64,000 nucleotides of DNA from Escherichia coli. Lineage in GTDB: Bacteria > Pseudomonadota > Gammaproteobacteria > Enterobacterales > Enterobacteriaceae. The first letter of the stretch is position 1, and each line of letters begins with the position of its first letter. Location of the stretch: assembly GCF_045037415.1 (NCBI RefSeq), contig NZ_CP173438.1, one strand, 5' to 3'. Below are positions 4,339 to 52,361 of this stretch, in pieces. The notes under the pieces are model-generated. The model had not been told where the DNA came from. It was given only the letters and a program-made list of their open reading frames with translations, and searched no databases. The position numbers and the translations under genes were made by a program.

Positions 4339-6423
4339 ATGGAAAGCAAACGTCTGGATAATGCCGCGCTGGCGGCGGGGATTAGCCCCAATTACATCAA
4401 TGCCCACGGTAAACCGCAGTCGATTAGCGCCGAAACCAAACGGCGTTTGCTTGACGCGATGCATCAACGTACCGCCACGAAAGTGGCGGTAACGCCAGTC
4501 CCGAATGTCATAGTTTATACCAGCGGCAAAAAAATGCCGATGGTGGTGGAGGGCAGCGGCGAATATAGCTGGCTGCTGACCACCGAAGAAGGAAAGCAGT
4601 ACAAAGGCCATGTGACGGGGGGCAAAGCGTTCAATCTACCGACGAAGCTGCCGGAAGGTTATCACACGCTGACGCTTACCCAGGACGACCAGCGCGCGCA
4701 TTGCCGGGTGATTGTCGCCCCGAAACGCTGTTACGAACCGCAGGCGTTGCTGAATAAACAAAAGCTGTGGGGTGCCTGCGTTCAGCTTTATACGCTGCGA
4801 TCGGAAAAAAACTGGGGTATTGGGGATTTTGGCGATCTCAAAGCGATGCTGGTGGATGTGGCAAAACGTGGCGGGTCGTTTATTGGTCTGAACCCGATTC
4901 ATGCGCTCTATCTGGCAAATCCGGAAAGTGCCAGCCCGTACAGCCCGTCTTCTCGCCGTTGGCTGAATGTGATTTATATCGACGTTAACGCAGTTGAAGA
5001 TTTCCATCTTAGCGAAGAGGCTCAGGCCTGGTGGCAGTTGCCGACCACGCAACAGACGCTGCAACAGGCGCGGGATGCCGACTGGGTTGATTACTCCACG
5101 GTTACCGCCCTAAAAATGACAGCATTACGAATGGCGTGGAAAGGTTTCGCGCAACGTGATGATGAGCAGATGACCGCGTTTCGCCAGTTTGTTGCAGAGC
5201 AGGGCGACAGCCTGTTCTGGCAGGCAGCCTTTGATGCGCTACATGCCCAGCAAGTGAAAGAGGACGAAATGCGCTGGGGCTGGCCAGCATGGCCAGAGAT
5301 GTATCAGAACGTGGATTCGCCAGAAGTGCGCCAGTTCTGCGAAGAACATCGTGATGACGTCGATTTTTATCTCTGGTTGCAGTGGCTGGCTTACAGCCAG
5401 TTTGCCGCCTGCTGGGAGATAAGCCAGGGCTATGAAATGCCGATTGGCTTGTATCGTGATCTGGCCGTTGGTGTAGCAGAAGGTGGGGCAGAAACCTGGT
5501 GCGACCGTGAACTGTATTGCCTGAAAGCGTCGGTTGGCGCGCCGCCGGATATCCTCGGCCCGTTGGGGCAGAACTGGGGATTGCCGCCAATGGACCCGCA
5601 TATCATCACCGCGCGTGCCTATGAACCGTTTATCGAGCTGTTGCGTGCCAATATGCAAAACTGCGGCGCATTACGAATTGATCACGTGATGTCGATGCTG
5701 CGTTTGTGGTGGATACCGTATGGCGAGACGGCAGATCAGGGCGCGTATGTTCACTATCCGGTGGATGATCTGCTCTCGATTCTGGCACTCGAAAGTAAAC
5801 GTCATCGCTGTATGGTGATTGGTGAAGATCTCGGTACCGTACCGGTAGAGATTGTCGGTAAGCTGCGCAGCAGCGGTGTGTACTCCTACAAAGTGCTCTA
5901 TTTCGAAAACGACCACGAGAAGACATTCCGCGCACCGAAAGCGTACCCAGAGCAGTCGATGGCGGTTGCGGCGACACACGACCTGCCTACGCTACGCGGC
6001 TACTGGGAGAGTGGGGATTTAACGCTGGGCAAAACGCTGGGGCTGTATCCGGATGAAGTGGTACTGCGCGGTCTGTATCAGGATCGCGAACTGGCGAAGC
6101 AAGGGCTGCTGGATGCTCTGCATAAATATGGTTGCCTGCCAAAACGTGCCGGGCATAAGGCATCGTTGATGTCGATGACACCGACGCTGAATCGTGGCTT
6201 ACAGCGCTACATCGCCGATAGCAACAGCGCCCTGTTAGGGCTCCAGCCGGAAGACTGGCTGGATATGGCAGATCCGGTAAATATTCCCGGCACCAGTTAC
6301 CAGTATAAAAACTGGCGACGTAAACTTTCCGCAACGCTTGAGTCGATGTTTGCCGATGATGGTGTGAACAAGTTGCTGAAGGATTTGGACAGACGGCGCA
6401 GAGCGGCAGCGAAGAAGAAGTAG
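4339..6423 (+). CDS. malQ: 4-alpha-glucanotransferase (amylomaltase)
   Basis: 694 aa ORF immediately downstream of malP, same strand; matches recalled MalQ length and sequence. Confidence 0.95.
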   Translation: MESKRLDNAALAAGISPNYINAHGKPQSISAETKRRLLDAMHQRTATKVAVTPVPNVIVYTSGKKMPMVVEGSGEYSWLLTTEEGKQYKGHVTGGKAFNLPTKLPEGYHTLTLTQDDQRAHCRVIVAPKRCYEPQALLNKQKLWGACVQLYTLRSEKNWGIGDFGDLKAMLVDVAKRGGSFIGLNPIHALYLANPESASPYSPSSRRWLNVIYIDVNAVEDFHLSEEAQAWWQLPTTQQTLQQARDADWVDYSTVTALKMTALRMAWKGFAQRDDEQMTAFRQFVAEQGDSLFWQAAFDALHAQQVKEDEMRWGWPAWPEMYQNVDSPEVRQFCEEHRDDVDFYLWLQWLAYSQFAACWEISQGYEMPIGLYRDLAVGVAEGGAETWCDRELYCLKASVGAPPDILGPLGQNWGLPPMDPHIITARAYEPFIELLRANMQNCGALRIDHVMSMLRLWWIPYGETADQGAYVHYPVDDLLSILALESKRHRCMVIGEDLGTVPVEIVGKLRSSGVYSYKVLYFENDHEKTFRAPKAYPEQSMAVAATHDLPTLRGYWESGDLTLGKTLGLYPDEVVLRGLYQDRELAKQGLLDALHKYGCLPKRAGHKASLMSMTPTLNRGLQRYIADSNSALLGLQPEDWLDMADPVNIPGTSYQYKNWRRKLSATLESMFADDGVNKLLKDLDRRRRAAAKKK

Positions 6424-6426
6424 AGT

Positions 6427-6530
6427 GCGGTTGATGCCGGATGCGACGCTTGACGCGTCTTACCGGCCTACTAATTAATGCCGAATCGTAGGCCGGATAA
6501 GGCGTTCACGCCGCATCCGGCCATCAGTAT
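6427..6530. repeat. REP/BIME palindromic elements between convergent malQ and gntT
   Basis: gccggatgcg...cgtcttaccggcctac and gtaggccggataaggcgttcacgccgcatccggcc are typical enterobacterial REP units in opposite orientation. Confidence 0.7.
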
Positions 6531-6532
6531 TA

Positions 6533-7849
6533 TCAAATCACCATATTCAGCAGCAGACAGCCTACCAGACCGCACACCGAGATAATGGTTTCCAGCATCG
6601 ACCAGGATTTGATGGTCTCGCCGATAGTCAGGTTAAAGTACTCTTTGAACAGCCAGAAGCCCGGATCGTTCACGTGAGAGAAAATCACACTACCGGAACC
6701 AACCGCAATAACCATCAGCTCCGGGCTAACACCCGTCGTTGCAATCAGCGGTGCCGCGATACCACCCGCAGTGATTGCCGCGACGGTTGCGGAACCCAGC
6801 GCGATACGCAGTACGGCAGCAATCGACCAGGCCATCAGCAGCGGAGAAATGTTGGTTTCGTGCATCATGGAAGCAATGTATTTGTCCACGCCGCTGTCTA
6901 CCAGCACCTGCTTGAACGCACCGCCACCACCGATAATCAACAGCATCATCGCAATGATTTTGATGGAAGAAACCAGCGTGTCGTTAATCTGATCCATTGA
7001 ACGGCCACGGTTCAGACCAAAGGTGAACATCGCGATCAGCACGGCAATCAGCGTAGCCATTACCGGGTCACCGAGGAACTCCGCTACCGGCAGGAAAGCG
7101 TGACCTTTCGGCAGGATCATTTCGGCAATCGCACGCATCGCCATCAGAACCACCGGCACCAGAGAGGTCCAGACGCTGACGCCAAAGCTCGGCATCTCTT
7201 CTTCGCTGAAGGTTTTCGCGCTGTACAGACCTTCCGGGATCGGCTTATCGATACCTTTCAACACGCGAGCGTAAACCGGACCGGCGAGAATCACGGTCGG
7301 GATTGCCAGAATAGTACCGTACAGCAGAGTTTTACCCATATCGGCATTGAAAATGGTGGCAATCGCAGTCGGACCCGGATGCGGTGGCAGGAAGCCGTGG
7401 GTCACAGACAGTGCAGCCGCCATTGGTACACCAACATACAGCAGTGGAATATTCGCGGAAGCCGCGATGGTAAACACCAGCGGCAGCATCAGCACGAAAC
7501 CCACTTCATAGAACAGGGCAAAACCAACGGTAAAACCGGTCAGTACCACCGCCCACTGGATGTGTTTTTTACCAAATTTGGCAATCAGCGTGGTAGCGAT
7601 ACGTTGTGCACCACCGCAGTCTGCCAGCATTTTGCCCAGCATCGCACCAAAACCCATGATCAGGGCAAGGCTACCGAGCGTTCCGCCGACACCAGCTTTG
7701 ATGGAGCCAATAACTTTATCCAGCGGCATCCCTTGCATTAATCCAACAGCAAGCGCCACGAGGACGAGAGCGATGAAGCCGTTCATTTTGAAGCGGATCA
7801 TCAGGAGTAATAACAAGATTACACCGATAGCAACAATGACTAATGGCAT
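6533..7849 (-). CDS. gntT: High-affinity gluconate:H+ symporter
   Basis: 438 aa very hydrophobic ORF (GntP family) adjacent to malQ as in E. coli. Confidence 0.92.
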   Translation of the reverse strand: MPLVIVAIGVILLLLLMIRFKMNGFIALVLVALAVGLMQGMPLDKVIGSIKAGVGGTLGSLALIMGFGAMLGKMLADCGGAQRIATTLIAKFGKKHIQWAVVLTGFTVGFALFYEVGFVLMLPLVFTIAASANIPLLYVGVPMAAALSVTHGFLPPHPGPTAIATIFNADMGKTLLYGTILAIPTVILAGPVYARVLKGIDKPIPEGLYSAKTFSEEEMPSFGVSVWTSLVPVVLMAMRAIAEMILPKGHAFLPVAEFLGDPVMATLIAVLIAMFTFGLNRGRSMDQINDTLVSSIKIIAMMLLIIGGGGAFKQVLVDSGVDKYIASMMHETNISPLLMAWSIAAVLRIALGSATVAAITAGGIAAPLIATTGVSPELMVIAVGSGSVIFSHVNDPGFWLFKEYFNLTIGETIKSWSMLETIISVCGLVGCLLLNMVI

Positions 7850-8007
7850 GATTTACCTGGCCTTTAATTTGTTATGGGTAACGTCAGGTTTCTGACGGAA
7901 AATCCTGGTTGTCCCAACTGGGAACAGAGATGTTACGGCACCACGGCTGATGACCCCTAAAACGAGTTAGTGTAGTCAGATGTTATGAGTGTGTTTGGTG
8001 CCCATGA

Positions 8008-8026
8008 GAATGATACGGGTAACATT
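8008..8026 (-). promoter_or_regulatory. Candidate GntR operator in gntT upstream region
   Basis: Reverse complement of gaatgatacgggtaacatt gives AATGTTACCCGTATCATTC, matching the recalled gntT operator; related half-site motifs ATGTTA at about 7871-7886 and 7929-7941. Confidence 0.5.
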
Positions 8027-8212
8027 ACGTGCTTGAGAATCACCAGAGCGGGGTAAATTTAAATTATGAGAGGTTGGTCATATTATCGTGGGGAAACGAA
8101 GAGATTGGATTTGCTGAGATAATTCTGCGCTAACGTCAGACTCTCGTGCAACGTACAGGCCCGATAAGACGCTTTAGCGTCACATCGGGCAATCGACAAA
8201 AGGGGAGAGAAC

Positions 8213-8788
8213 TTAGTAGTAAGAGTGCTCGCCGCGCTGGTGTTCGGTGAGATCGCGTACACCTTTCAGCTCCGGGAATTCGTTCAGCAACTGCTTCTCG
8301 ATCCCCTCTTTCAGGGTGACGTCGACCATGGAACAACCGTTACAGCCACCGCCAAATTGCAAAATGGCGTAACCGTCTTCGGTGATTTCCATCAGCGAAA
8401 CGCGACCACCGTGACCAGCAAGCTGTGGGTTGATCTGTGATTGCAGCATATACTCCACGCGCTCCATCAGCGGCGCATCGTCAGCCACTTTACGCATTTT
8501 GGCGTTAGGCGCTTTCAGCGTCAGCTGCGAACCCAACTGGTCGGTAACAAAATCGATCTCTGCATCTTCCAGGTAAGGAGCGCTTAACTCATCAACATAC
8601 GCGGTCAGCAGGTCAAATTTCAGGGCAGTGTCGGTGGCTTCCACAGCGTCCGGCGGACAATAAGAAACGCCACATTCAGCGTTAGGCGTGCCAGGGTTAA
8701 TCACAAATACGCGGATTTGTGTCCCTTCTTCCTGGTTTGCCAGCAGTTTGGCAAAGTGCGCTTGTGCAGCATCGGAAATACGGATCAT
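8213..8788 (-). CDS. nfuA: Fe-S cluster carrier protein NfuA
   Basis: 191 aa ORF with C-terminal Nfu domain CxxC ([11 protein letters not shown]); position between gntT and gntX. Confidence 0.93.
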
Positions 8789-8846
8789 AGTAATGGCCTA
8801 ATAGTTGACTATTTTAGTTGGTTATAATACGCCCATCATCGAGGCT

Positions 8847-9548
<702 letters not shown>

Positions 9549-9549
9549 A

Positions 9550-10338
<789 letters not shown>

Positions 10339-10366
10339 GTGGCTTTCGAAATGGCGGGACAGAACT

Positions 10367-10777
10367 TTACTGGCTCGCCGCAGCCAACTCTTCTTCTGAC
10401 ACCCCGGTAAAGCGCATGATGTCTGCAAGAGGGACTCCGGATTCAAGCATTATTTTTGCTATATGCAAGGCTTTGGATTGTTCCCCTTCCTGCCGCAATC
10501 TTTCCGCAATAGTCATTAAACTCTCCTTGTGTTTTGGTGAACGTTCGGCCACACCATCGATAAAATCGTTAAAACGTACCGCGTCGCCGGTTTGCAGTAT
10601 GTAATTAAACAGCCCTTTGATTTGTCTGTCATTTGCGTATCCACTACTTAATAAGCAGGCCATTTGCTCTACCAGTCCTATCAGATCGCGTTGACGAATA
10701 TGTTTTTGAATTAACTCCAGCAGCGCCATGCTCGCGTGCCGTCTCCGGTTGGCGTAAAAAGAGTTTGAACAGCGCAT
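10367..10777 (-). pseudogene. rpnA: 5'-truncated remnant of rpnA (yhgA), Rpn/YhgA-like recombination-promoting nuclease
   Basis: 136 aa frame resembling only the C-terminal part of Rpn/YhgA-like proteins (...LRQEGEQSKALHIAKIMLESGVPLADIMRFTGVSEEEL...); the bioH-feoC interval is only about 660 bp, too short for the recalled ~292 aa gene. Confidence 0.55.
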
Positions 10778-10940
10778 CGTGTGGGGTGGAACTCTGCTTT
10801 TTGCTCATGGCGTTCCTTCACCTGTTATTTGAATGCCGCGACTCTACGCGCCACTCCACACCTGTGCATTAGCGAGTTTTCATCCCAGCGAGACGCTTTC
10901 AGAGGAACTTACGTCGCGCTGCTATGGAAAGCCGCACGCA

Positions 10941-10974
10941 AAAAAGCCCGGATGCAAACGCATACCGGGCTTTC
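10941..10974 (-). terminator. Rho-independent terminator downstream of feoC
   Basis: aagcccgg-atgcaaacgcat-accgggctt hairpin preceded on the plus strand by an A-run (T-run on the minus strand). Confidence 0.6.
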
Positions 10975-10995
10975 AAAACAGGCAGTGAAACAAGG

Positions 10996-11232
10996 TTAAC
11001 GCAACGCCCACCATTCGTGCAGACAGGCTTTTCCTTCCGGGCAGCTTTTACAACTGCCGGAAAGACAGCCGTCAGGTTCTTCCTGAATCCGCACTGCTTT
11101 TCCCATACTTTCTAGCTGTTTCAGCATGGCGTTAATCATTGGCTGCGGAGTGTTCAGTGTCTGGCTAATCTGGGCCGCTTCCATACGGCCCCGTAATGCC
11201 AGTAAATCACGCACTTGAATGAGCGAAGCCAT
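10996..11232 (-). CDS. feoC: Ferrous iron transport protein FeoC
   Basis: 78 aa product starting [15 protein letters not shown] within the listed 92 aa frame; winged-helix protein with Cys cluster; directly downstream of feoB. Confidence 0.85.
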
Positions 11233-11242
11233 TGTCGTGTCC

Positions 11243-13564
11243 TTAGTGGCAATCGCCAGTGGTACTGGCCGCACAGCAACTGCTTACCGATTTGCGCGTT
11301 GCCAGCAGTTCGATATCCACCCGGCTACGCGCGCGACGCAGCAAACCGATAACCACGATGTTAAACAGAATAACCGCCAGAATGCATACCAGGCTGTAGG
11401 TTGGATGCTGGCTGTAGCTGGCGATCTGATAGAACAATGTTGCCAGCGAGTAAGCGATATTCAGCCCCCACAGAATGGAGAAGCCCATCCAGCCACGGCT
11501 TGATTCACGGGCGATGGCTCCCATCACCGAGATACATGGTACATACAGCAGGACGAAAATCAGGTAGCTGTATGCGGCAGCTGCGCTACCGAATTTCTGA
11601 TCCATCACGCCCATCGCTCCGGTACCCATTTCGCCGTCGCCTTTGCTTGCTTCAATGGGGTTCATCAGTACGCTAAGGCTGAAGGTGTCTTTCAGGCTCT
11701 GCCAGGTTTCATCTACCGCACTGAACAGCTCTTCACCGAGGTTAAATTCCGCCGGATTGAACTCTTCGTCCTGAATATTTTCTGCGGTGTAGAGGGTGTT
11801 GAGCGTACCCACCACCACTTCTTTCGCCATGGCACCTGTAAACAGGCCAACCGTTGCCTGCCAGTTATCTTCATGTACGCCAATCGGCTTGAAGACCGGG
11901 GTGATCACCCGGCTGACGGAAGCCAGCGCCGAGTCGTTGATGTTATCGACGATTTTCCCGCTCAATGAGAAGCTGTTGAAGGCGCTCAGGAAAATGCTGA
12001 CGATGATAATCACTTTACCAGCACGCAGAACGAAGCCTTTCAGACGCTGCCAGGTCTGGATAATCAGGCTTTTAACGTGGGGTACATGGTAGACCGGCAG
12101 CTCCATGACAAACGGCGTCGCTTCACCGCGCATGATGGTGTACTTGAGCATCAGGCCAGTCAGCACCGCCATTACGATACCCAGCATATACAGCGAGAAG
12201 ACCGCCAGCGCACCGTTCTGCCCGAAGAAGGCAGCCGCGAATACTGCGAAGATAGCCAGACGCGCGCCGCAGGACATAAACGGTGCCATCATGATGGTCA
12301 TCAGACGTTCACGCGGTGCATCAAGCGTACGTGCGCCCATTACCGACGGTACGTTACAACCGAAACCAACGATCAGCGGTACAAAGGATTTCCCCGGCAA
12401 GCCCAGCGCCTGCATCAGACGGTCCATCACAAACGCCGCACGCGCCATATAGCCGGAGTCCTCAAGGAAGGAGAGGAACAGGTACATCATGCCGATCTGC
12501 GGCACCAGTGGCAGCACGGTGTTAATACCGCCGCCCAGGCCTTGGGCGAGGAAGATAGTCAGCCAGTCCGGGAAGTGGAGCGTGTAGCCAATCCACTGAA
12601 TACCATGCACAAAGAGTGCTACGGAGCCGACGTCAAACAGCGGCTGTAACGCCCCGCCGATGTTGATAGCCAGCAAGAACATCAGGTACATCACAAAGAG
12701 GAAAATCGGCAGACCGAGGAAACGGTTGAGCACGATTTTATCTACCGCAGTGGTGAAACGGCTGGGTTCTGCCGTCAGGGTGTTGCTTACCACATCACAG
12801 ATGGCAGCAATGCACTGGTAACGCGCATCGGCAATGTGCAGCGCCGGATCGTCCATCTCATTACGCAGACGGGCGAGGGCGGCATCCAGATGCTGCGACG
12901 CTTCACCGGCGTAGGCGCGGCTGTAGATATCGCCTTCCAGCATTTGCAGGCCCAGCCAGCGACGTTGTTTCAGCGGGATGTCGGAAGGCATCACTTTTGC
13001 CAGTGAATCTGCTTCGTTGAGCAGCGGCTGAGCGTAATGCACCAGTTCCACATTCTCGTTAGCTTTATAGCGATCAATCGCCAGCTTGAGCGCTTCAATA
13101 CCGCGACCACGGGTTGAAACCAGCGGGATCACCGGGCAGCCAAGACGCGCCGACAGAGCATCAATTTCAATACGAATATTTTGCTTCTCGGCAATGTCGA
13201 GCATGTTCAGCGCCACGATGCAGGGAATGCCGAGTTCCAACAGTTGCAGCGTCAGGTACAGGTTACGCTCAAGGTTAGACGCATCCACCACGTTAATCAG
13301 CAGGTCTGCGTCGCCACTCAAAATGTAGTGACAGGCGATTTGCTCATCGAGCGAGGTCTGCGATGAGATGGTGGTCAGAGAATAGGTGCCGGGCAGGTCC
13401 ACCAGCGTGACCTGATGATCGGTGGTGGAGAATTGCCCTTCTTTACGTTCGACGGTAACGCCAGCCCAGTTACCTACACGCTGACGTGAGCCAGTAAGCT
13501 GGTTAAATAACGTTGTCTTGCCAGAATTTGGATTACCAATTAAGCCAATGGTTAATTTTTTCAT
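11243..13564 (-). CDS. feoB: Ferrous iron transporter FeoB (GTPase plus permease)
   Basis: Start trimmed to [18 protein letters not shown] (G1 P-loop); 773 aa; polytopic C-terminal domain. Confidence 0.95.
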
Positions 13565-42904: not shown

Positions 42905-42932
42905 AAAAAAACCGGGGAAACCCGGTTTTTTT
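42905..42932 (+). terminator. Rho-independent terminator of the aroK...trpS transcription unit
   Basis: aaccggg-gaaa-cccggtt followed by tttttt. Confidence 0.75.
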
Positions 42933-43050
42933 ATCCTCATTTGCAATAATCCGAAAAAATGTGAAGCGCCTCGCCGTTTCCACATCTCGCTGTTGCGCCT
43001 TATCTTCAAATTCATGAAGATATAAACATTCATTTTATTGAAAATATATT

Positions 43051-43956
43051 ATGCGTCGAACGTTTATCAAAAAAGAAGGCGTCGTTATCACGACACTGGC
43101 CCGTTATTTGTTGGGTGAAAAGTGCGGTAATCGACTGAAAACCATAGATGAGCTGGCAACTGAATGCCGTTCATCGGTTGGCCTGACGCAGGCCGCGTTG
43201 AAAACGCTGGAATCAAGCGGAGCGATACGGATTGAACGCCGTGGGCGCAATGGCAGTTATCTGGTTGAGATGGATAACAAAGCATTGCTGACTCATGTGG
43301 ATATCAACAACGTGGTATGTGCGATGCCCTTGCCCTATACCCGTTTGTACGAAGGCCTGGCGAGCGGATTGAAAGCCCAGTTTGATGGCATTCCTTTTTA
43401 CTATGCGCATATGCGCGGCGCGGATATTCGCGTGGAGTGTTTACTTAACGGCGTGTATGACATGGCGGTGGTTTCGCGACTGGCGGCGGAAAGTTATCTC
43501 ACGCAAAAAGGATTATGCCTCGCGCTGGAGTTGGGACCGCATACCTACGTTGGCGAGCACCAGTTGATTTGCCGTAAAGGCGAGTCCGCAAACGTGAAGC
43601 GCGTGGGGCTGGATAACCGTTCGGCGGATCAGAAAATCATGACCGATGTCTTTTTTGGCGATAGTGATGTGGAACGAGTCGATCTCTCTTATCACGAGAG
43701 TTTACAACGCATTGTTAAAGGCGATGTTGACGCGGTTATCTGGAACGTAGTGGCGGAAAACGAACTGACCATGCTGGGATTAGAAGCGACGCCGCTCACA
43801 GACGATCCGCGATTTTTACAGGCCACCGAAGCCGTGGTCCTGACGCGAGTCGATGATTACCCAATGCAACAACTGCTGCGTGCAGTTGTTGATAAACATG
43901 CCCTGCTTGCTCATCAACAGCGAGTAGTCAGTGGGGAACAGGAACCCAGTTATTAA
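43051..43956 (+). CDS. yhfZ: Putative transcriptional regulator YhfZ
   Basis: 301 aa; N-terminal HTH-like region followed by a periplasmic-binding-protein-like fold; first gene of the yhf cluster. Confidence 0.8.
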   Translation: MRRTFIKKEGVVITTLARYLLGEKCGNRLKTIDELATECRSSVGLTQAALKTLESSGAIRIERRGRNGSYLVEMDNKALLTHVDINNVVCAMPLPYTRLYEGLASGLKAQFDGIPFYYAHMRGADIRVECLLNGVYDMAVVSRLAAESYLTQKGLCLALELGPHTYVGEHQLICRKGESANVKRVGLDNRSADQKIMTDVFFGDSDVERVDLSYHESLQRIVKGDVDAVIWNVVAENELTMLGLEATPLTDDPRFLQATEAVVLTRVDDYPMQQLLRAVVDKHALLAHQQRVVSGEQEPSY

Positions 43957-43972
43957 ACGAAAGGCATCTGAT

Positions 43973-44335
43973 ATGGAAACCAGACTCAACCTGCTTTGCG
44001 ATGCAGGCGTTATTGATAAGGACATCTGCAAAGGCATGATGCAGGTCGTCAATGTACTGGAAACAGAGTGCCATCTACCGGTGCGCAGTGAGCAAGGAAC
44101 GATGGCGATGACACATATGGCGAGTGCACTGATGCGCAGTCGCCGTGGTGAAGAAATAGAGCCGCTGGATGACGAATTGCTGGCGGAACTGGCGCAATCC
44201 AGCCACTGGCAAGCCGTTGTGCAATTGCATCAGGTATTGTTGAAGGAATTTGCACTGGAAGTTAACCCGTGTGAAGAAGGCTATTTGCTGGCCAACCTTT
44301 ATGGATTATGGATGGCTGCTAACGAAGAGGTTTGA
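43973..44335 (+). CDS. yhfY: YhfY, uncharacterized (PRD-like) protein
   Basis: 120 aa product starting METRLNLLCDAG inside the listed 134 aa frame. Confidence 0.75.
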   Translation: METRLNLLCDAGVIDKDICKGMMQVVNVLETECHLPVRSEQGTMAMTHMASALMRSRRGEEIEPLDDELLAELAQSSHWQAVVQLHQVLLKEFALEVNPCEEGYLLANLYGLWMAANEEV

Positions 44336-44418
44336 AGCTCCCGATAAATCCACGTCGTACAACCTAAATATTCAAAAAAATGAATATTTAATTCAAGGAA
44401 CAGAAACGAGGCAACAAG

Positions 44419-45582
44419 ATGTTTGTAGAAGCATTGAAACGCCAGAACCCGGCGCTGATTTCCGCCGCACTAAGTTTGTGGCAGCAGGGCAAGATCGCCC
44501 CGGACAGTTGGGTGATCGACGTGGATCAAGTTCTGGAAAACGGCAAGCGGCTGATTGAGACGGCGCGGCTTTACGGCATTGAACTGTATCTGATGACCAA
44601 ACAATTCGGTCGTAATCCGTGGCTGGCAGAAAAACTGCTGGCTCTGGGCTACAGCGGCATTGTGGCGGTGGATTACAAAGAGGCGCGAGTCATGCGCCGC
44701 GCCGGTTTGCCGGTAGCGCATCAGGGGCATCTGGTACAAATCCCTTGTCATCAGGTTTCTGACGCCGTTGAACAGGGAACCGACGTCATCACTGTGTTTA
44801 CCCTCGACAAAGCGCGGGAAATTTCTGCGGCAGCGGTGAAGGCCGGACGTGTGCAGTCTGTGCTGCTCAAAGTTTATAGCGACGATGATTTTCTTTATCC
44901 GGGGCAGGAGAGCGGTTTTGTACAGCATTCGCTGCACGAGGTGGTTGCTGAAATCCAGAATCTGCCGGGGCTACATTTGGCGGGACTTACCCATTTCCCT
45001 TGCCTGCTTTGGGATGAGGCTGCCGGGAAAGTTTTGCCGACACCGAATCTTCACACGCTGGTACAAGCACGGGATCAACTGGCGAAATCTGGTATTGCGA
45101 TTGAGCAACTGAACGCGCCTTCAGCGACCAGCTGCACGTCGCTGCCATTGCTGGTGGAATACGGTGTGACTCATACCGAACCCGGTCATGCGCTGACGGG
45201 CACTATTCCGGCAAACCAGCGGGGCGATCAGCCTGAACGTATCGCGATGCTCTGGTTAAGTGAAATCTCCCATCATTTCCGTGGCGACAGCTACTGCTAC
45301 GGCGGCGGTTACTACCGTCGTGGTCACGCGCAACATGCGCTGGTGTTTACGCCAGAAAATCAAAGAATTACTGAAACATATCTCAACGCCGTGGATGACA
45401 GCAGTATCGACTACACCCTGCCGCTGGCAGGCGAGCATCCGGTAAGCAGTGCAGTGGTGCTCTGTTTTCGCACGCAGATTTTTATCACCCGTAGCGATGT
45501 GGTGTTGGTGTCCGGTATTCACCATGGCGAACCAGAAATAGTTGGTCGTTATGACAGCCTCGGCAACCCTCTGGAGGCGTAA
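44419..45582 (+). CDS. yhfX: YhfX, fold-type III PLP enzyme (alanine racemase-like)
   Basis: 387 aa; matches recalled K-12 YhfX. Confidence 0.85.
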   Translation: MFVEALKRQNPALISAALSLWQQGKIAPDSWVIDVDQVLENGKRLIETARLYGIELYLMTKQFGRNPWLAEKLLALGYSGIVAVDYKEARVMRRAGLPVAHQGHLVQIPCHQVSDAVEQGTDVITVFTLDKAREISAAAVKAGRVQSVLLKVYSDDDFLYPGQESGFVQHSLHEVVAEIQNLPGLHLAGLTHFPCLLWDEAAGKVLPTPNLHTLVQARDQLAKSGIAIEQLNAPSATSCTSLPLLVEYGVTHTEPGHALTGTIPANQRGDQPERIAMLWLSEISHHFRGDSYCYGGGYYRRGHAQHALVFTPENQRITETYLNAVDDSSIDYTLPLAGEHPVSSAVVLCFRTQIFITRSDVVLVSGIHHGEPEIVGRYDSLGNPLEA

Positions 45583-46809
45583 ATGGCGCGATTTGTGGTG
45601 TTAGTGATTGATAGCTTTGGCGTAGGGGCAATGAAAGATGTCACGTTGGTGCGTCCGCAGGATGCCGGGGCGAATACCTGTGGTCACATCCTGAGCCAGT
45701 TGCCGCATTTGCAGCTACCAACGCTGGAGACGCTGGGGCTAATCAACGCATTGGGTTATGCGCCTGGCGATATGCAGCCGTCAGACTCCGCAACCTGGGG
45801 CGTGGCAGAGCTGCAACATGAAGGTGGCGATACCTTTATGGGGCATCAGGAAATTTTAGGTACGCGCCCATTACCGCCGCTGCGGATGCCCTTTCGTGAT
45901 GTGATTGACCGTGTTGAGCAGGCATTAGTTTCCGCTGGCTGGCAGGTTGAGCGTCGTGGCGATGATCTGCAATTTCTGTGGGTCAATCAGGCGGTTGCGA
46001 TTGGCGATAATCTCGAGGCGGATTTAGGTCAGGTCTATAACATCACCGCCAATCTCTCTGTGATCTCTTTTGACGACGCAATCAAAATGGGTCGTATCGT
46101 GCGTGAGCAGGTACAGGTCGGTCGGGTCATTACATTTGGTGGCCTGTTAACCGACAGCCAGTGCATCCTCGATGCCGCAGAAAGCAAAGAAGGGCGCTTT
46201 ATTGGTATCAATGCGCCGCGTTCTGGCGCCTATGACAACGGTTTCCAGGTCGTACATATGGGCTACGGTGTCGATGAAAAAGTGCAGGTGCCGCAAAAAC
46301 TGTATGAAGCGGGCGTGCCAACCGTGCTGGTGGGTAAGGTGGCAGATATCGTCAGCAATCCTTATGGCGTGAGCTGGCAAAACCTGGTGGATAGCCAGCG
46401 GATTATGGATATCACCCTCAACGAATTTAACACCTATCCGACGGCGTTTATTTGTACCAATATCCAGGAAACCGACCTCGCTGGTCATGCAGAAGACGTC
46501 GCACGTTATGCCGAACGTTTGCAGGTCGTTGACCGTAACCTTGCCCGGCTTGTTGAGGCGATGCAGCCAGATGATTGCCTGGTCGTGATGGCGGATCACG
46601 GTAACGATCCGACCATCGGTCACAGCCACCATACCCGCGAAGTGGTGCCAGTGCTGGTTTATCAGCAAGGACTGGTCGCTACGCAGCTCGGTGTGCGCAC
46701 CACGCTTTCTGATGTGGGGGCTACCGTGTGTGAATTTTTCCGTGCGCCACCGCCACAAAATGGTCGCTCTTTTCTTTCCTCCTTCCGGTTTGCAGGAGAC
46801 ACCCTATGA
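45583..46809 (+). CDS. yhfW: YhfW, phosphopentomutase-like metalloenzyme
   Basis: 408 aa; start 1 bp after yhfX stop. Confidence 0.85.
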
Positions 46810-47684
46810 GTTTTGATCCGACGGGCTACACCCTCGCCCATGAGCATCTGCATATTGATCTTTCCGGCTTTAAAAACAACGTGGACTGCCGCCTTGATCA
46901 GTATGCGTTCATTTGCCAGGAGATGAACGACCTGATGGCCCGGGGCGTGCGTAATGTGATTGAGATGACCAACCGTTACATGGGGCGCAATGCGCAATTT
47001 ATGCTCGATGTAATGCGCGAAACCGGGATCAACGTGGTGGGCTGTACCGGTTATTACCAGGACGCGTTTTTCCCGGAACATGTGGCGACCCGCAGCGTGC
47101 AGGAACTGGCGCAGGAGATGGTCGATGAAATTGAGCAGGGTATCGATGGCACTGACCTGAAAGCCGGAATTATCGCGGAGATCGGCTCCAGCGAAGGGAA
47201 GATTACGTCGCTGGAAGAGAAGGTGTTTATTGCCGCCGCGCTGGCGCATAACCAGACCGGACGCCCGATCTCCACGCATACGTCGTTCAGCACGATGGGG
47301 CTGGAGCAACTGGCTCTGTTGCAAGCCCACGGAGTTGATCTTTCGCGCGTCACCGTCGGCCACTGCGATCTGAAAGACAATCTCGACAACATTTTGAAGA
47401 TGATCGATCTCGGCGCGTATGTGCAGTTCGACACCATCGGCAAGAACAGTTACTACCCGGACGAAAAGCGCATTGCGATGCTCCATGCGCTACGTGACCG
47501 TGGGTTGCTGAACCGCGTCATGCTGTCGATGGATATTACGCGGCGCTCTCATTTAAAAGCCAACGGTGGTTATGGCTATGACTTTTTATTGACCACCTTT
47601 ATTCCGCAATTGCGCCAGTCAGGATTCAGTCAGGCCGATGTGGATGTGATGTTACGTGAAAATCCCTCTCAATTTTTCCAATAA
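46806..47684 (+). CDS. php: Phosphotriesterase homology protein (amidohydrolase superfamily)
   Basis: 292 aa; N-terminal HxH metal ligands ([10 protein letters not shown]); overlaps yhfW stop. Confidence 0.9.
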
Positions 47685-47694
47685 GGACAGACTC

Positions 47695-48048
47695 ATGAAA
47701 AAGATTGGCGTTGCAGGCTTACAGCGTGAGCAGATTAAAAAAACCATTGAAGCGACGGCTCCTGGCTGTTTTGAAGTTTTCATTCACAACGACATGGAAG
47801 CGGCAATGAAAGTGAAATCCGGACAACTGGATTACTACATCGGCGCGTGTAATACCGGTGCGGGCGCAGCCTTGTCGATTGCTATCGCGGTGATTGGCTA
47901 TAACAAAAGTTGCACCATTGCCAAGCCGGGCATTAAAGCGAAAGACGAACATATCGCCAAAATGATCGCTGAAGGAAAAGTGGCGTTTGGCCTTTCCGTT
48001 GAGCACGTTGAACACGCGATTCCGATGCTGATTAACCATCTAAAATAA
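47695..48048 (+). CDS. yhfU: YhfU, small uncharacterized protein (DUF2620-like)
   Basis: 117 aa product starting MKKIGVAGLQ inside the listed 130 aa frame. Confidence 0.8.
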   Translation: MKKIGVAGLQREQIKKTIEATAPGCFEVFIHNDMEAAMKVKSGQLDYYIGACNTGAGAALSIAIAVIGYNKSCTIAKPGIKAKDEHIAKMIAEGKVAFGLSVEHVEHAIPMLINHLK

Positions 48049-48059
48049 AAGGCACGACT

Positions 48060-49364
48060 ATGGATCTGTATATTCAGATTATCGTGGTGGCGTGCCTGAC
48101 GGGTATGACATCGCTTCTGGCGCATCGCTCGGCGGCCGTTTTTCATGACGGTATCCGCCCGATCCTGCCACAACTGATTGAAGGCTATATGAACCGTCGC
48201 GAGGCGGGGAGCATCGCTTTTGGTCTGAGCATTGGTTTTGTGGCCTCGGTGGGGATCTCTTTTACCCTGAAAACCGGGCTGCTCAACGCATGGTTACTCT
48301 TTCTTCCTACCGATATCCTCGGCGTACTGGCGATAAACAGCCTGATGGCGTTTGGTCTTGGTGCTATCTGGGGAATATTGATCCTCACCTGTCTGTTGCC
48401 AGTAAACCAGCTGCTGACCGCGCTACCGGTGGATGTATTAGGTAGCCTGGGGGAATTAAGCTCGCCGGTGGTTTCAGCTTTTGCACTGTTCCCGTTGGTG
48501 GCGATTTTCTACCAGTTTGGCTGGAAGCAAAGTCTGATCGCCGCCGTGGTGGTACTGATGACTCGTGTGGTGGTAGTACGCTATTTCCCACATCTTAACC
48601 CTGAATCCATCGAAATCTTTATTGGCATGGTGATGCTGCTGGGGATCGCAATAACTCATGACCTGCGTCATCGTGATGAAAATGATATCGATGCCAGCGG
48701 TATGTCGGTGTTTGAAGAGCGTACATCACGGATTATCAAAAACTTACCGTATATCGCCATCGTGGGTGCATTGATTGCTGCCGTTGCCAGCATGAAGATT
48801 TTCGCCGGTAGTGAAGTGTCGATCTTCACACTGGAGAAAGCGTACTCCGCAGGCGTAACGCCGGAACAATCGCAAACACTAATCAACCAGGCGGCACTGG
48901 CAGAATTTATGCGCGGGCTGGGTTTTGTGCCGTTGATTGCCACCACGGCGTTAGCCACCGGCGTGTATGCAGTTGCGGGCTTTACCTTTGTTTATGCGGT
49001 GGGCTATCTCTCGCCGAATCCGATGGTTGCAGCGGTATTAGGCGCAGTGGTTATTTCGGCGGAAGTCTTGCTGCTTCGTTCTATCGGCAAATGGTTGGGG
49101 CGCTACCCGTCGGTACGTAATGCGTCGGATAACATCCGTAACGCCATGAATATGCTGATGGAAGTGGCGTTGCTGGTCGGTTCGATCTTTGCAGCAATCA
49201 AAATGGCGGGCTATACCGGATTCTCTATCGCGGTTGCCATTTACTTCCTCAACGAATCCCTGGGCCGTCCGGTACAGAAAATGGCGGCACCGGTCGTGGC
49301 AGTAATGATCACCGGCATCCTGCTGAATGTTCTTTACTGGCTTGGCCTGTTCGTTCCGGCTTAA
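48060..49364 (+). CDS. yhfT: YhfT, inner membrane permease-like protein
   Basis: 434 aa strongly hydrophobic polytopic ORF. Confidence 0.85.
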   Translation: MDLYIQIIVVACLTGMTSLLAHRSAAVFHDGIRPILPQLIEGYMNRREAGSIAFGLSIGFVASVGISFTLKTGLLNAWLLFLPTDILGVLAINSLMAFGLGAIWGILILTCLLPVNQLLTALPVDVLGSLGELSSPVVSAFALFPLVAIFYQFGWKQSLIAAVVVLMTRVVVVRYFPHLNPESIEIFIGMVMLLGIAITHDLRHRDENDIDASGMSVFEERTSRIIKNLPYIAIVGALIAAVASMKIFAGSEVSIFTLEKAYSAGVTPEQSQTLINQAALAEFMRGLGFVPLIATTALATGVYAVAGFTFVYAVGYLSPNPMVAAVLGAVVISAEVLLLRSIGKWLGRYPSVRNASDNIRNAMNMLMEVALLVGSIFAAIKMAGYTGFSIAVAIYFLNESLGRPVQKMAAPVVAVMITGILLNVLYWLGLFVPA

Positions 49365-49375
49365 GGAAGGCACCT

Positions 49376-50461
49376 ATGAAGACGTTTCCTCTGCAAAGCC
49401 TGACGCTTATTGAGGCGCAGCAAAAGCAGTTTGCGCTGGTGGACACGATTTGCCGTCATTTTCCTGGCAGCGAGTTTCTTACCTGCGGTGATTTGGGCTT
49501 AACGCCGGGGCTAAATCAGCCCCGCATTACCCAGCGTGTGGAACAGGTGCTGGCTGACGCGTTTCACGCACAGGCCGCGGCGCTGGTACAGGGCGCGGGT
49601 ACTGGCGCGATCCGTGCGGCGCTGGCAGCTTTGCTCAAATCGGGGCAGCGTCTTCTGGTGCATGACGCGCCGGTTTATCCAACGACGCGCGTCATTATTG
49701 AGCAGATGGGGCTAACGCTCATTACGGCTGATTTCAATGATCTGTCGGCACTGAAGCAGGTTGTTGACGAGCAACAACCTGATGCCGCGCTGGTGCAGCA
49801 TACGCGCCAGCAGCCGCAGGACCGCTATGTGCTGGCAGACGTGCTGGCAACGTTGCGCGCGGCAGGTGTTCCAGCGTTAACCGATGACAACTATGCGGTG
49901 ATGAAGGTAGCGCGAATCGGCTGCGAATGCGGGGCGAATGTGTCGACATTTTCCTGCTTCAAGCTATTTGGGCCAGAGGGCGTTGGTGCGGTGGTAGGCG
50001 ATGCCGATGTTATTAGCCGGATTCGCGCCACGCTCTATTCCGGCGGCAGTCAGATTCAGGGGGCGCAGGCATTAGAGGTGTTGCGTGGTCTGGTGCTCGC
50101 GCCAGTGATGCACGCGGTGCAGGCGGGGGTATCTGAACGGTTGCTGGCTTTGCTTAACGGCGGCGCGGTGGCGGAAGTGAAAAGCGCCGTCATTGCCAAT
50201 GCACAGTCGAAGGTATTGATTGTGGAGTTTCATCAGCCGATTGCCGCCAGAGTGCTGGAAGAGGCGCAGAAACTCGGTGCCTTGCCTTACCCGGTTGGTG
50301 CAGAGTCGAAATATGAAATCCCGCCGCTCTTTTATCGACTTTCCGGAACGTTTCGCCAGGCGAATCCGCAGTTAGAACATTGCGCGATTCGCATTAACCC
50401 AAATCGCGGCGGTGAAGAGACGATATTGCGGATCTTGCGTGAAAGTATTGCCAGCATTTAA
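49376..50461 (+). CDS. yhfS: YhfS, PLP-dependent aminotransferase-like protein
   Basis: 361 aa; last gene of the yhf cluster. Confidence 0.85.
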   Translation: MKTFPLQSLTLIEAQQKQFALVDTICRHFPGSEFLTCGDLGLTPGLNQPRITQRVEQVLADAFHAQAAALVQGAGTGAIRAALAALLKSGQRLLVHDAPVYPTTRVIIEQMGLTLITADFNDLSALKQVVDEQQPDAALVQHTRQQPQDRYVLADVLATLRAAGVPALTDDNYAVMKVARIGCECGANVSTFSCFKLFGPEGVGAVVGDADVISRIRATLYSGGSQIQGAQALEVLRGLVLAPVMHAVQAGVSERLLALLNGGAVAEVKSAVIANAQSKVLIVEFHQPIAARVLEEAQKLGALPYPVGAESKYEIPPLFYRLSGTFRQANPQLEHCAIRINPNRGGEETILRILRESIASI

Positions 50462-50568
50462 TCGTTGTAAACGATATTTTCGAAAAGAATGCAGAAACAA
50501 ATACGCCCTCGGATAACTCCGAGGGCGTCAGGCAATTAAACCGGCGTTAGCCGATTTCTGTCAGAGAC

Positions 50569-50736
50569 TTACTGTGCAGTCGGACCGCAACCGCCAATGA
50601 TTTTAGAAATAGAAATTGCCGGGTGCAGCAGGTAGTCGTAAGAGCAGTTCTTATCACGGTTTTCAATATGACCAGTACATGCAGTTAACGTAGCCAGTAC
50701 TGCGCCTACCAGTGCAACTTTAATAAATTTGTTCAT
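50569..50736 (-). CDS. yhfL: Small lipoprotein YhfL
   Basis: Not in ORF track (55 aa): minus-strand translation MNKFIKVALVGAVLATLTACTGHIENRDKNCSYDYLLHPAISISKIIGGCGPTAQ with lipobox LTAC. Confidence 0.85.
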   Translation of the reverse strand: MNKFIKVALVGAVLATLTACTGHIENRDKNCSYDYLLHPAISISKIIGGCGPTAQ

Positions 50737-50957
50737 TTACATTCCCTATGTATTATATATTAATTAATATTCATTGATTATATGAATATAAGCAGACTGC
50801 TCATTAAGAACGATACAGGAATATTCAATTAGCGTCAGTGAGCGATTGGCTTAATTTTGTAAGTTGCTGTAACGGTGAATATAACCCATTAGCAGACAAT
50901 ATTTATTAAGGGGTTATATTTTTATCTGCTGAATATATAAAGAGAGTTGTAAACGAA

Positions 50958-50985
50958 AAAGGCCAGACTTCTCTGGCCCTGGTTA
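50958..50985 (-). terminator. Rho-independent terminator downstream of cysG
   Basis: ggccagag-aagt-ctggcc hairpin followed by a T-run on the minus strand. Confidence 0.6.
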
Positions 50986-50987
50986 AA

Positions 50988-52361
50988 TTAATGGTTAGAG
51001 AACCAGTTCAATTTATCGCGCAGGCCAACAACCCGACCAATAATAATTAGCGATGGACTGTTCATTTGCTGCGCCAGTTCGCCCAGCTGCGTGAGCGTAC
51101 CGTCAATCACGCGCTGCGTGACTGCCGTTCCGTTTTCGACAATTGCTACCGGCATTTCACCAGGCATACCGTATTCAATCAGCTTTTGCTGAATAGTTGC
51201 AGCCTGATTCAGCCCCATATAAAACACCAGCGTCTGTTTTTCTGCCGCCAGGTTTTCCCAGTCCAGCTCGCCACCGGTTTTTAAGTGTCCAGTAATTAAG
51301 CGTACGCTCTGGGCATAATCGCGATGCGTGAGCGGAATACCCGAATAGGCAGAGCAACCAGAGGCTGCGGTAATACCCGGAACCACCGAGAATGGAATAC
51401 CCGCGTTGCACAGTGTTTCCAGCTCTTCGCCACCACGGCCAAAAATAAACGGATCGCCGCCTTTCAGCCGCACCACGCGTTTGCCTTTTTGCGCTTCCCG
51501 CAGCAGGATCTGGTTAATCTCTTCCTGCGGTACGCAGTGGTATCCCGCGCGTTTGCCGACGAAAACGCGATCAGCATCGCGGCGTACCAGATTCATAATA
51601 TCGTCAGAAACCAGACGGTCGTAGACCACCACATCTGCCTGCTGAATTTGTTGCAGACCTTTCAGTGTCAGCAGCCCGGCATCGCCCGGACCTGCACCAA
51701 CCAGCACCACTTCACCGCGATGATCGAGCGGTTCATTGATTAACTGTTCGGTGGTTTCAGTAATGGCTTTCTGATCGTTGTTGGCCAGCGACTGCGCCAG
51801 GCGGTCATTAACGAACAATTTCTCCCAGAAACGGCGACGCTCACCCATCGTGGCGAACTGTTGTTTCACTCGCCCGCGTAATTGCCCGGCGTATTTCGCT
51901 ACCTGGCCCAGATGTAACGGCAGCAGTGATTCGAGTTTTTCGCGCAACAGGCGCGCCAGAACCGGAGAGGTGCCGCCAGAGGAAACCGCTACCATGAGCG
52001 GCGAGCGGTCAATAATCGACGGCATAATAAAGCTGGCGGCTTTCGGCGCATCGACCACGTTACAGAAGATGCGACGAGCTTCAGCGGCTTCGCTGACGCG
52101 CTGGTTAAGCGCGTCATCATCCGTCGCTGCAATCGCCAGCCAGCAGGTGTCGAGAAGGCTTTCATCAAATGGCCCTTCGACGAGGGTTAACATGCCTGCA
52201 TCTGCCCATGCGGTGAACTGTGGAATAAACGCTAATGCATTCACCGTTAAGCGAGCGCCTGCGTCTAACAGCAACCTTGCTTTGCGTTCCGCGACATCAC
52301 CACCGCCGACAATCAGACAGTCGCGATCGCGTAATTGGCAAAATATAGGCAAATGATCCAC
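50988..52361 (-). CDS. cysG: Siroheme synthase (uroporphyrinogen-III methyltransferase / dehydrogenase / ferrochelatase)
   Basis: 457 aa; N-terminal Rossmann plus C-terminal SUMT domain. Confidence 0.95.

Follow-up and report, generated by a model that had tools for sequence, protein, structure and literature searches.

Cooked food is rich in the Amadori product fructoselysine, the use of which separates Escherichia coli lineages in the gut. The lack of frl is among the best metabolic discriminators of B2/ExPEC strains, ST131 included, from A/B1 commensals. In K-12, the annotated gene order is yhfL-frlA-frlB-frlC-frlD-frlR followed by a convergent yhfS, and this locus constitutes the fructoselysine/psicoselysine operon (Wiame et al., cited in PMC5996543). 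Fang et al. (2018) reported that B2 strains lack both the frl operon and the transporter for fructoselysine. In their models, no substrates discriminated better than fructoselysine and psicoselysine, with growth predicted for 0–3% of B2 strains versus 69–91% of the others, and it was suggested that B2 strains had "dispensed with" these enzymes (PMC5996543). According to a 2025 preprint, frl absence is a hallmark of B2, and its supplementary entry for pathway PWY0-521 reads "Absence B2, D, F, G", with frequencies of 100, 75, 0.14, 100, 7.7, 55, 0, and 0% that we read as referring to phylogroups A, B1, B2, C, D, E, F, and G, respectively (10.1101/2025.09.14.675865). A paper on frl regulation makes no mention of yhfL, yhfS, or strain distribution (10.1101/2020.01.13.904318).

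The presence or absence of frl is an ordinary polymorphism that has already been published, and the junction described here is chiefly a lineage marker, which the initial annotation of this DNA correctly rediscovered. Our modest addition is the polarity of the difference: the anatomy of the junction and its outgroups indicate that B2 very probably holds the original, never-interrupted allele.

Results

The window, by which we mean the whole 64-kb stretch of DNA analyzed, contains yhfS (49376–50461, plus strand) as the final gene of the yhfZYXW-php-yhfUTS cluster. This 361-aa open reading frame, ending with a TAA stop codon at 50459–50461, encodes a PLP-dependent aminotransferase-fold enzyme. 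On the minus strand lie yhfL (50569–50736; open reading frame and RefSeq annotation), which encodes a 55-aa small lipoprotein of the DUF4223/YhfL family, and the siroheme synthase gene cysG (50991–52361; NCBIfam NF007922, 630 bits), which anchors the conserved nirBDC-cysG-yhfL side of the locus. A tblastn search with K-12 proteins placed php, yhfU, yhfT, and yhfS in this order, with yhfL, cysG, and nirC on the opposite strand, and gave identities of 96% for YhfS, 100% for YhfL, and 99.8% for CysG. NCBIfam has no family for YhfL or YhfT and its matches of YhfS to PLP enzymes were weak; the identities of YhfL, YhfT, and YhfS rest on K-12 orthology and on RefSeq annotation, in which the genes of strain AVS0285, identical in sequence, are labelled yhfS and yhfL.

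As the initial annotation had stated, yhfS and yhfL converge across about 107 bp, an arrangement borne out by the sequence and open reading frame list, by tblastn, and by RefSeq annotation. Neither the open reading frame list nor tblastn placed a gene between them, and five K-12 proteins (the permease FrlA, the deglycase FrlB, the epimerase FrlC, the kinase FrlD, and the repressor FrlR) found no match anywhere in the 64-kb window (tblastn, E ≤ 1e-3). The convergent spacer of this uninterrupted, frl-less allele occupies 50462–50568 (107 bp, assigned to neither strand) and aligns collinearly with that of its relatives. The K-12 order given in the same annotation (yhfL, frlA, frlB, frlC, frlD, frlR, yhfS) agrees with the MG1655 annotation, so that the two genes adjacent in the window are separated by frlABCDR in the reference.

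The breakpoints relative to K-12 were located by BLAST. Window positions 50493–50900, covering yhfL, its 3' region, and the hairpin described below, correspond to K-12 3,499,284–3,499,691 at 96% identity, and the window up to 50462 corresponds to K-12 from 3,504,934 onward, the edge of this block falling 1 base past the yhfS stop codon. In coordinates of the extracted K-12 locus, window positions 50493 and 50462 map to 3692 and 8935, respectively. The window thus has 30 bp (50463–50492, assigned to neither strand; cgttgtaaacgatattttcgaaaagaatgc) where K-12 has 5,242 bp (NC_000913.3 3,499,692–3,504,933). The K-12 segment comprises a 294-bp frlA upstream region that includes the frlA promoter region, frlABCDR, and, adjoining yhfS, repeats that we take to be a REP unit and a boxC-like element. 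Its G+C content (53.8%) is not distinctive when compared with the flanks (51.7% and 53.9%). The flanks are orthologous, with DNA identities of 97.6% for cysG, 98.8% for yhfL, and 90.9% for yhfS, and the yhfL terminator hairpin is the same in both.

The 30-bp segment was considered as a possible remnant of the ends of the K-12 insert. Its yhfL-proximal end looked vaguely alike by eye, but local alignment attributed this to chance: similarity of the spacer to both ends of the insert was matched by 532 of 2,000 shuffles. No frl, REP, or boxC remnant was found in the window spacer. With neither remnant similarity beyond chance nor REP/boxC sequence, the junction does not resemble a deletion scar or an excision site, and we treat the 30 bp as presumably replaced in K-12 and not retained there.

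The hairpin between the two stop codons (gccctcgga-taac-tccgagggc, 50505–50526) belongs to a yhfL terminator at 50503–50528 on the minus strand, identified by a terminator scan, RNA folding, and conservation. The full 11-bp stem pairs 50503–50513 with 50518–50528 around a loop at 50514–50517, and in the terminator scan of the minus strand it appears as an 11-bp stem with 8 G-C pairs, a 4-nt loop, and the tail ATTTGTTTCT. The minus strand of 50470–50570 folds at −36.3 kcal/mol (z = −4.2 versus shuffles). Across 11 Escherichia sequences including K-12, 96.7% of cells in the terminator stem are paired, and two pairs have changed on both sides. The initial annotation was right about this hairpin but not in calling it the single one, as a small second stem-loop on the minus strand (50537–50556), supported by folding and conservation, has 93% of its cells paired and likewise two pairs changed on both sides across Escherichia. 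The two-helix structure is 95.2% paired in the 11 sequences versus 30–46% in controls with slid partners. The hairpin is, by prediction, a textbook intrinsic (Rho-independent) terminator for yhfL; K-12 has it too, between yhfL and frlA, which rules out a deletion scar and makes the hairpin uninformative on the gain or loss of frl. The second stem-loop directly follows the yhfL stop codon, precedes the terminator, and shows G-C to A-U compensatory changes in the 11 Escherichia sequences. An Rfam search of 49800–51200 returned nothing meaningful, with one snoRNA match (E = 0.8) far under the gathering score.

Over 24 kb (40000–64000), the window is 100% identical to EC958, JJ1886, JJ1887, and many other O25b:H4-ST131 genomes. 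This identity indicates that the source is an ST131-type strain of phylogroup B2, the MLST and Clermont marker loci lying outside the window. The ST131 genomes EC958 and JJ1886 have the same order of yhfS, convergent yhfL, and cysG, and the ST95 strain IHE3034 is 99.3% identical over the 1.2-kb junction. No difference from the frl-less B2 yhfS-yhfL group was found, and the window is a member of it.

Among 5,426 complete E. coli genomes, the contiguous yhfS-yhfL junction occurs in 2,107 and frlABCD in 3,300 (megablast); a sensitive blastn search with frlBCD returned exactly the same 3,300 genomes. All frl copies in this sample are chromosomal, none being located on plasmids, and are at least 95% identical to K-12. 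In the other genomes, the sensitive search found no frl copy that had diverged or moved elsewhere, and in one genome frlD is all that remains of frl. The initial annotation would have been overturned by frl genes elsewhere in the same genome; in E. coli no frl DNA was found outside the locus, and the 3,300 frl-positive genomes are complementary to the 2,107 with a contiguous junction. We infer that frl is absent from the rest of the source genome from these complementary counts, the identical ST131 genomes, and the literature, and not from the source genome itself.

A chimeric query of frlB and arpA matched 7,394 places in 4,116 genomes. About 3,270 genomes have both genes, about 1,310 have neither, and about 820 lack frl but have arpA, whole or as a fragment. 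In the Clermont typing scheme, phylogroups B2, F, and G lack arpA. This co-occurrence, taken with the scheme, means that essentially all frl-positive genomes fall outside B2, F, and G, and that frl absence reaches beyond these phylogroups.

A YhfS scan of one genome per bacterial species gave 80 loci, which were annotated with K-12 proteins. Convergent yhfL directly follows yhfS in E. albertii, E. whittamii, Escherichia sp. MOD1-EC7003, and strain SCPM-O-B-8794, and yhfS is followed by yhfL or cysG, without frl, in Citrobacter, Enterobacter, Klebsiella spallanzanii, Buttiauxella, Cedecea, Superficieibacter, and Pluralibacter. Indeed, every YhfS locus from outside E. coli that extends far enough downstream leads to yhfL or cysG with no frl between. 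The junctions of E. albertii and E. whittamii have the same convergent layout, a collinear spacer of 107–117 bp, and the same two hairpins, and differ from the window by ordinary sequence divergence only (yhfS 84–89% identical).

Eight frl-less spacers are collinear throughout, including the 30 bp missing from frl-positive alleles: those of the window, E. albertii, E. whittamii, MOD1-EC7003, SCPM-O-B-8794, and three divergent E. coli whose yhfS is just 91–92% identical to that of the window. The collinear spacer and the frl-less outgroups together suggest that the window allele is ancestral and the frl-positive arrangement derived.

The yhfS gene is itself unusually diverse. Among six E. coli haplotypes, pairwise differences reach 6–9% in yhfS (window 49500–50400) versus 1–3% in cysG/nirBDC, and E. 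coli yhfS alleles are about 91% identical to each other versus about 89% to E. whittamii; those of K-12 and W are 99.9% identical. The divergence between K-12 and the window (89–91% identity) was considered as DNA imported with frl or as a balanced polymorphism linked to the indel. Both ideas were rejected, as yhfS diversity is equally high among frl-less haplotypes and is thus a property of yhfS and not of the indel.

Genomes carrying frl share their junctions. K-12, W, Sakai, and E69 have one common junction on the yhfL side, and K-12 and E69 also have the same junction on the yhfS side, which points to a single insertion event. Among other organisms, the FrlB proteins nearest to that of E. 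coli come from Serratia sp. (84%) and Sodalis sp. C49 (83%), followed by Paenibacillus (73%) and many Clostridia (about 55–65%). In Sodalis sp. C49 (CP163303.1, locus 6603–12604), a frlA-B-C-D-R cassette adjoins trpS-gph-rpe-dam in the ppiA-trpS neighborhood, and in Serratia sp. (locus 6624–11573) the same five genes, in the same order, are flanked by unrelated genes. The patchy distribution of FrlB and these differing contexts fit a horizontally transferred cassette. It is also possible that the ppiA-trpS neighborhood is a recurrent landing site for the frl cassette.

A third state of the locus is found in O157:H7 Sakai, in which yhfL, frlABC, a frlD pseudogene, and frlR are followed directly by trpS (NC_002695.2 4213311–4231996). 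The nirBDC-cysG-yhfL side and the yhfL terminator are the same as in the window, but the gene content is the opposite, with frl present and the whole yhfS-yhfZ cluster absent. The yhfS-yhfZ stretch (7.7 kb of K-12) is missing and the REP/boxC sequence by frlR is kept (locus 10786–11660; window about 42909–50461), which suggests a deletion from an arrangement of the K-12 type. With the yhf cluster gone, O157 genomes matched our junction query in its yhfL half only.

In nirC and cysG, the genome labelled E. coli E69 (CP089930.1, locus 5130–10456) shows about 95% identity to all E. coli sensu stricto. It carries frl at junctions identical to those of K-12, and its frl is 93.5% identical to that of K-12, a divergence similar to that of its flanks. 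The frl-positive allele may accordingly predate the E. coli radiation, or may have spread between lineages by homologous recombination; this caveat leaves the conclusion on the window's allele unchanged. The genome collection treats E69 as a separate species representative.

Discussion

It is very probable that the window carries the ancestral Escherichia allele, which never contained frl, and that the frl cassette inserted once in another allele lineage. In the ancestral layout, the yhf cluster would have ended at yhfS, converging on yhfL over about 107 bp with the yhfL terminator. A different allele lineage would have received, in a single insertion, a 5.2-kb cassette made up of frlABCDR and the promoter region of frlA; this would have taken the place of 30 bp bounded by the yhfS stop codon on one side and by the A-rich flank of the terminator on the other. 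The REP/boxC-like repeats at the frlR end, typical E. coli intergenic elements, may postdate this insertion. The frl-positive allele is that of K-12 and of phylogroups A, B1, C, and E, and the ST131/B2 allele described here would never have contained frl. Given the established role of FrlA–D, a strain with this allele is predicted neither to import nor to catabolize fructoselysine or psicoselysine. The hairpin would terminate transcription of yhfL and perhaps, weakly, that of the converging yhfS.

The initial annotation had left open whether this strain lost the operon or never acquired it, and the collinear 30-bp spacer and the outgroup genera without frl favor the latter. A secondary loss, in which a K-12-like, frl-positive ancestor of B2 deleted the 5.2-kb operon, has in its favor that the frl-positive allele seems old, as the frl divergence of E69 equals that of its flanks, and that deletions do occur at this locus, as in Sakai without its 7.7-kb yhf cluster and in the genome with frlD alone. 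However, the 30 bp (50463–50492) are absent from K-12 but align with the spacers of E. albertii, E. whittamii, and further Escherichia without frl, and a deletion from a K-12-like chromosome could not regenerate them. The spacer is also free of frl, REP, and boxC remnants, and the window of Frl matches. The conserved spacer effectively refutes such a loss, which we consider highly improbable. An artefact of assembly or sampling, with the operon collapsed out of the assembly, is more improbable still, given that 2,107 complete RefSeq genomes, among them the finished ST131 references EC958 and JJ1886, have this very junction.

Loss by allelic replacement, or an ancient presence/absence polymorphism, deserves more weight, although we regard it as unlikely. 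The ancestral E. coli population would have had both alleles, and B2 would have fixed the frl-less one or re-imported it by recombination in the flanks. The distribution is indeed patchy, with frl in E69, A, B1, C, and E and none in B2, D, F, G, or other species; frl of E69 has diverged as much as its flanks, and yhfS diversity is unusually deep, its 6–9% within E. coli being near between-species values. However, frl-less haplotypes differ from one another in yhfS as much as frl-positive and frl-negative ones do, and the diversity is not tied to the indel. Moreover, in the accepted phylogroup order, in which E and A/B1/C branch after B2/G, F, and D, the species pattern requires no loss and is explained by one gain within E. 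coli. The window sequence itself, as an allele, would still never have carried frl. A related reading, to which we give slightly less credence, is that the two states form an old polymorphism across Escherichia lineages, kept or repeatedly exchanged by homologous recombination because using fructoselysine would be of benefit in some gut niches only; the deep yhfS diversity and the presence of frl in E69 at identical junctions leave some room for it. If the window indeed retains the original allele, as we favor, the published view of B2 strains as having dispensed with these enzymes probably has the direction reversed.

Two minor differences from K-12 were observed elsewhere in the yhf region. 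The yhf cluster is 95% identical to K-12 overall versus about 98% for its flanks, and divergence peaks in yhfX, with 88.7% identity at 44700–45000 and 91.7% at 45300–45600. In the gap between trpS and yhfZ, at window position 42908, K-12 has an additional 129 bp (NC_000913.3, about 3,512,487–3,512,615) without a counterpart in the window. Judged by its position in intergenic sequence, this appears to consist of two REP-like palindromic units, and the contrast at 42908 is a small REP/BIME presence/absence difference.
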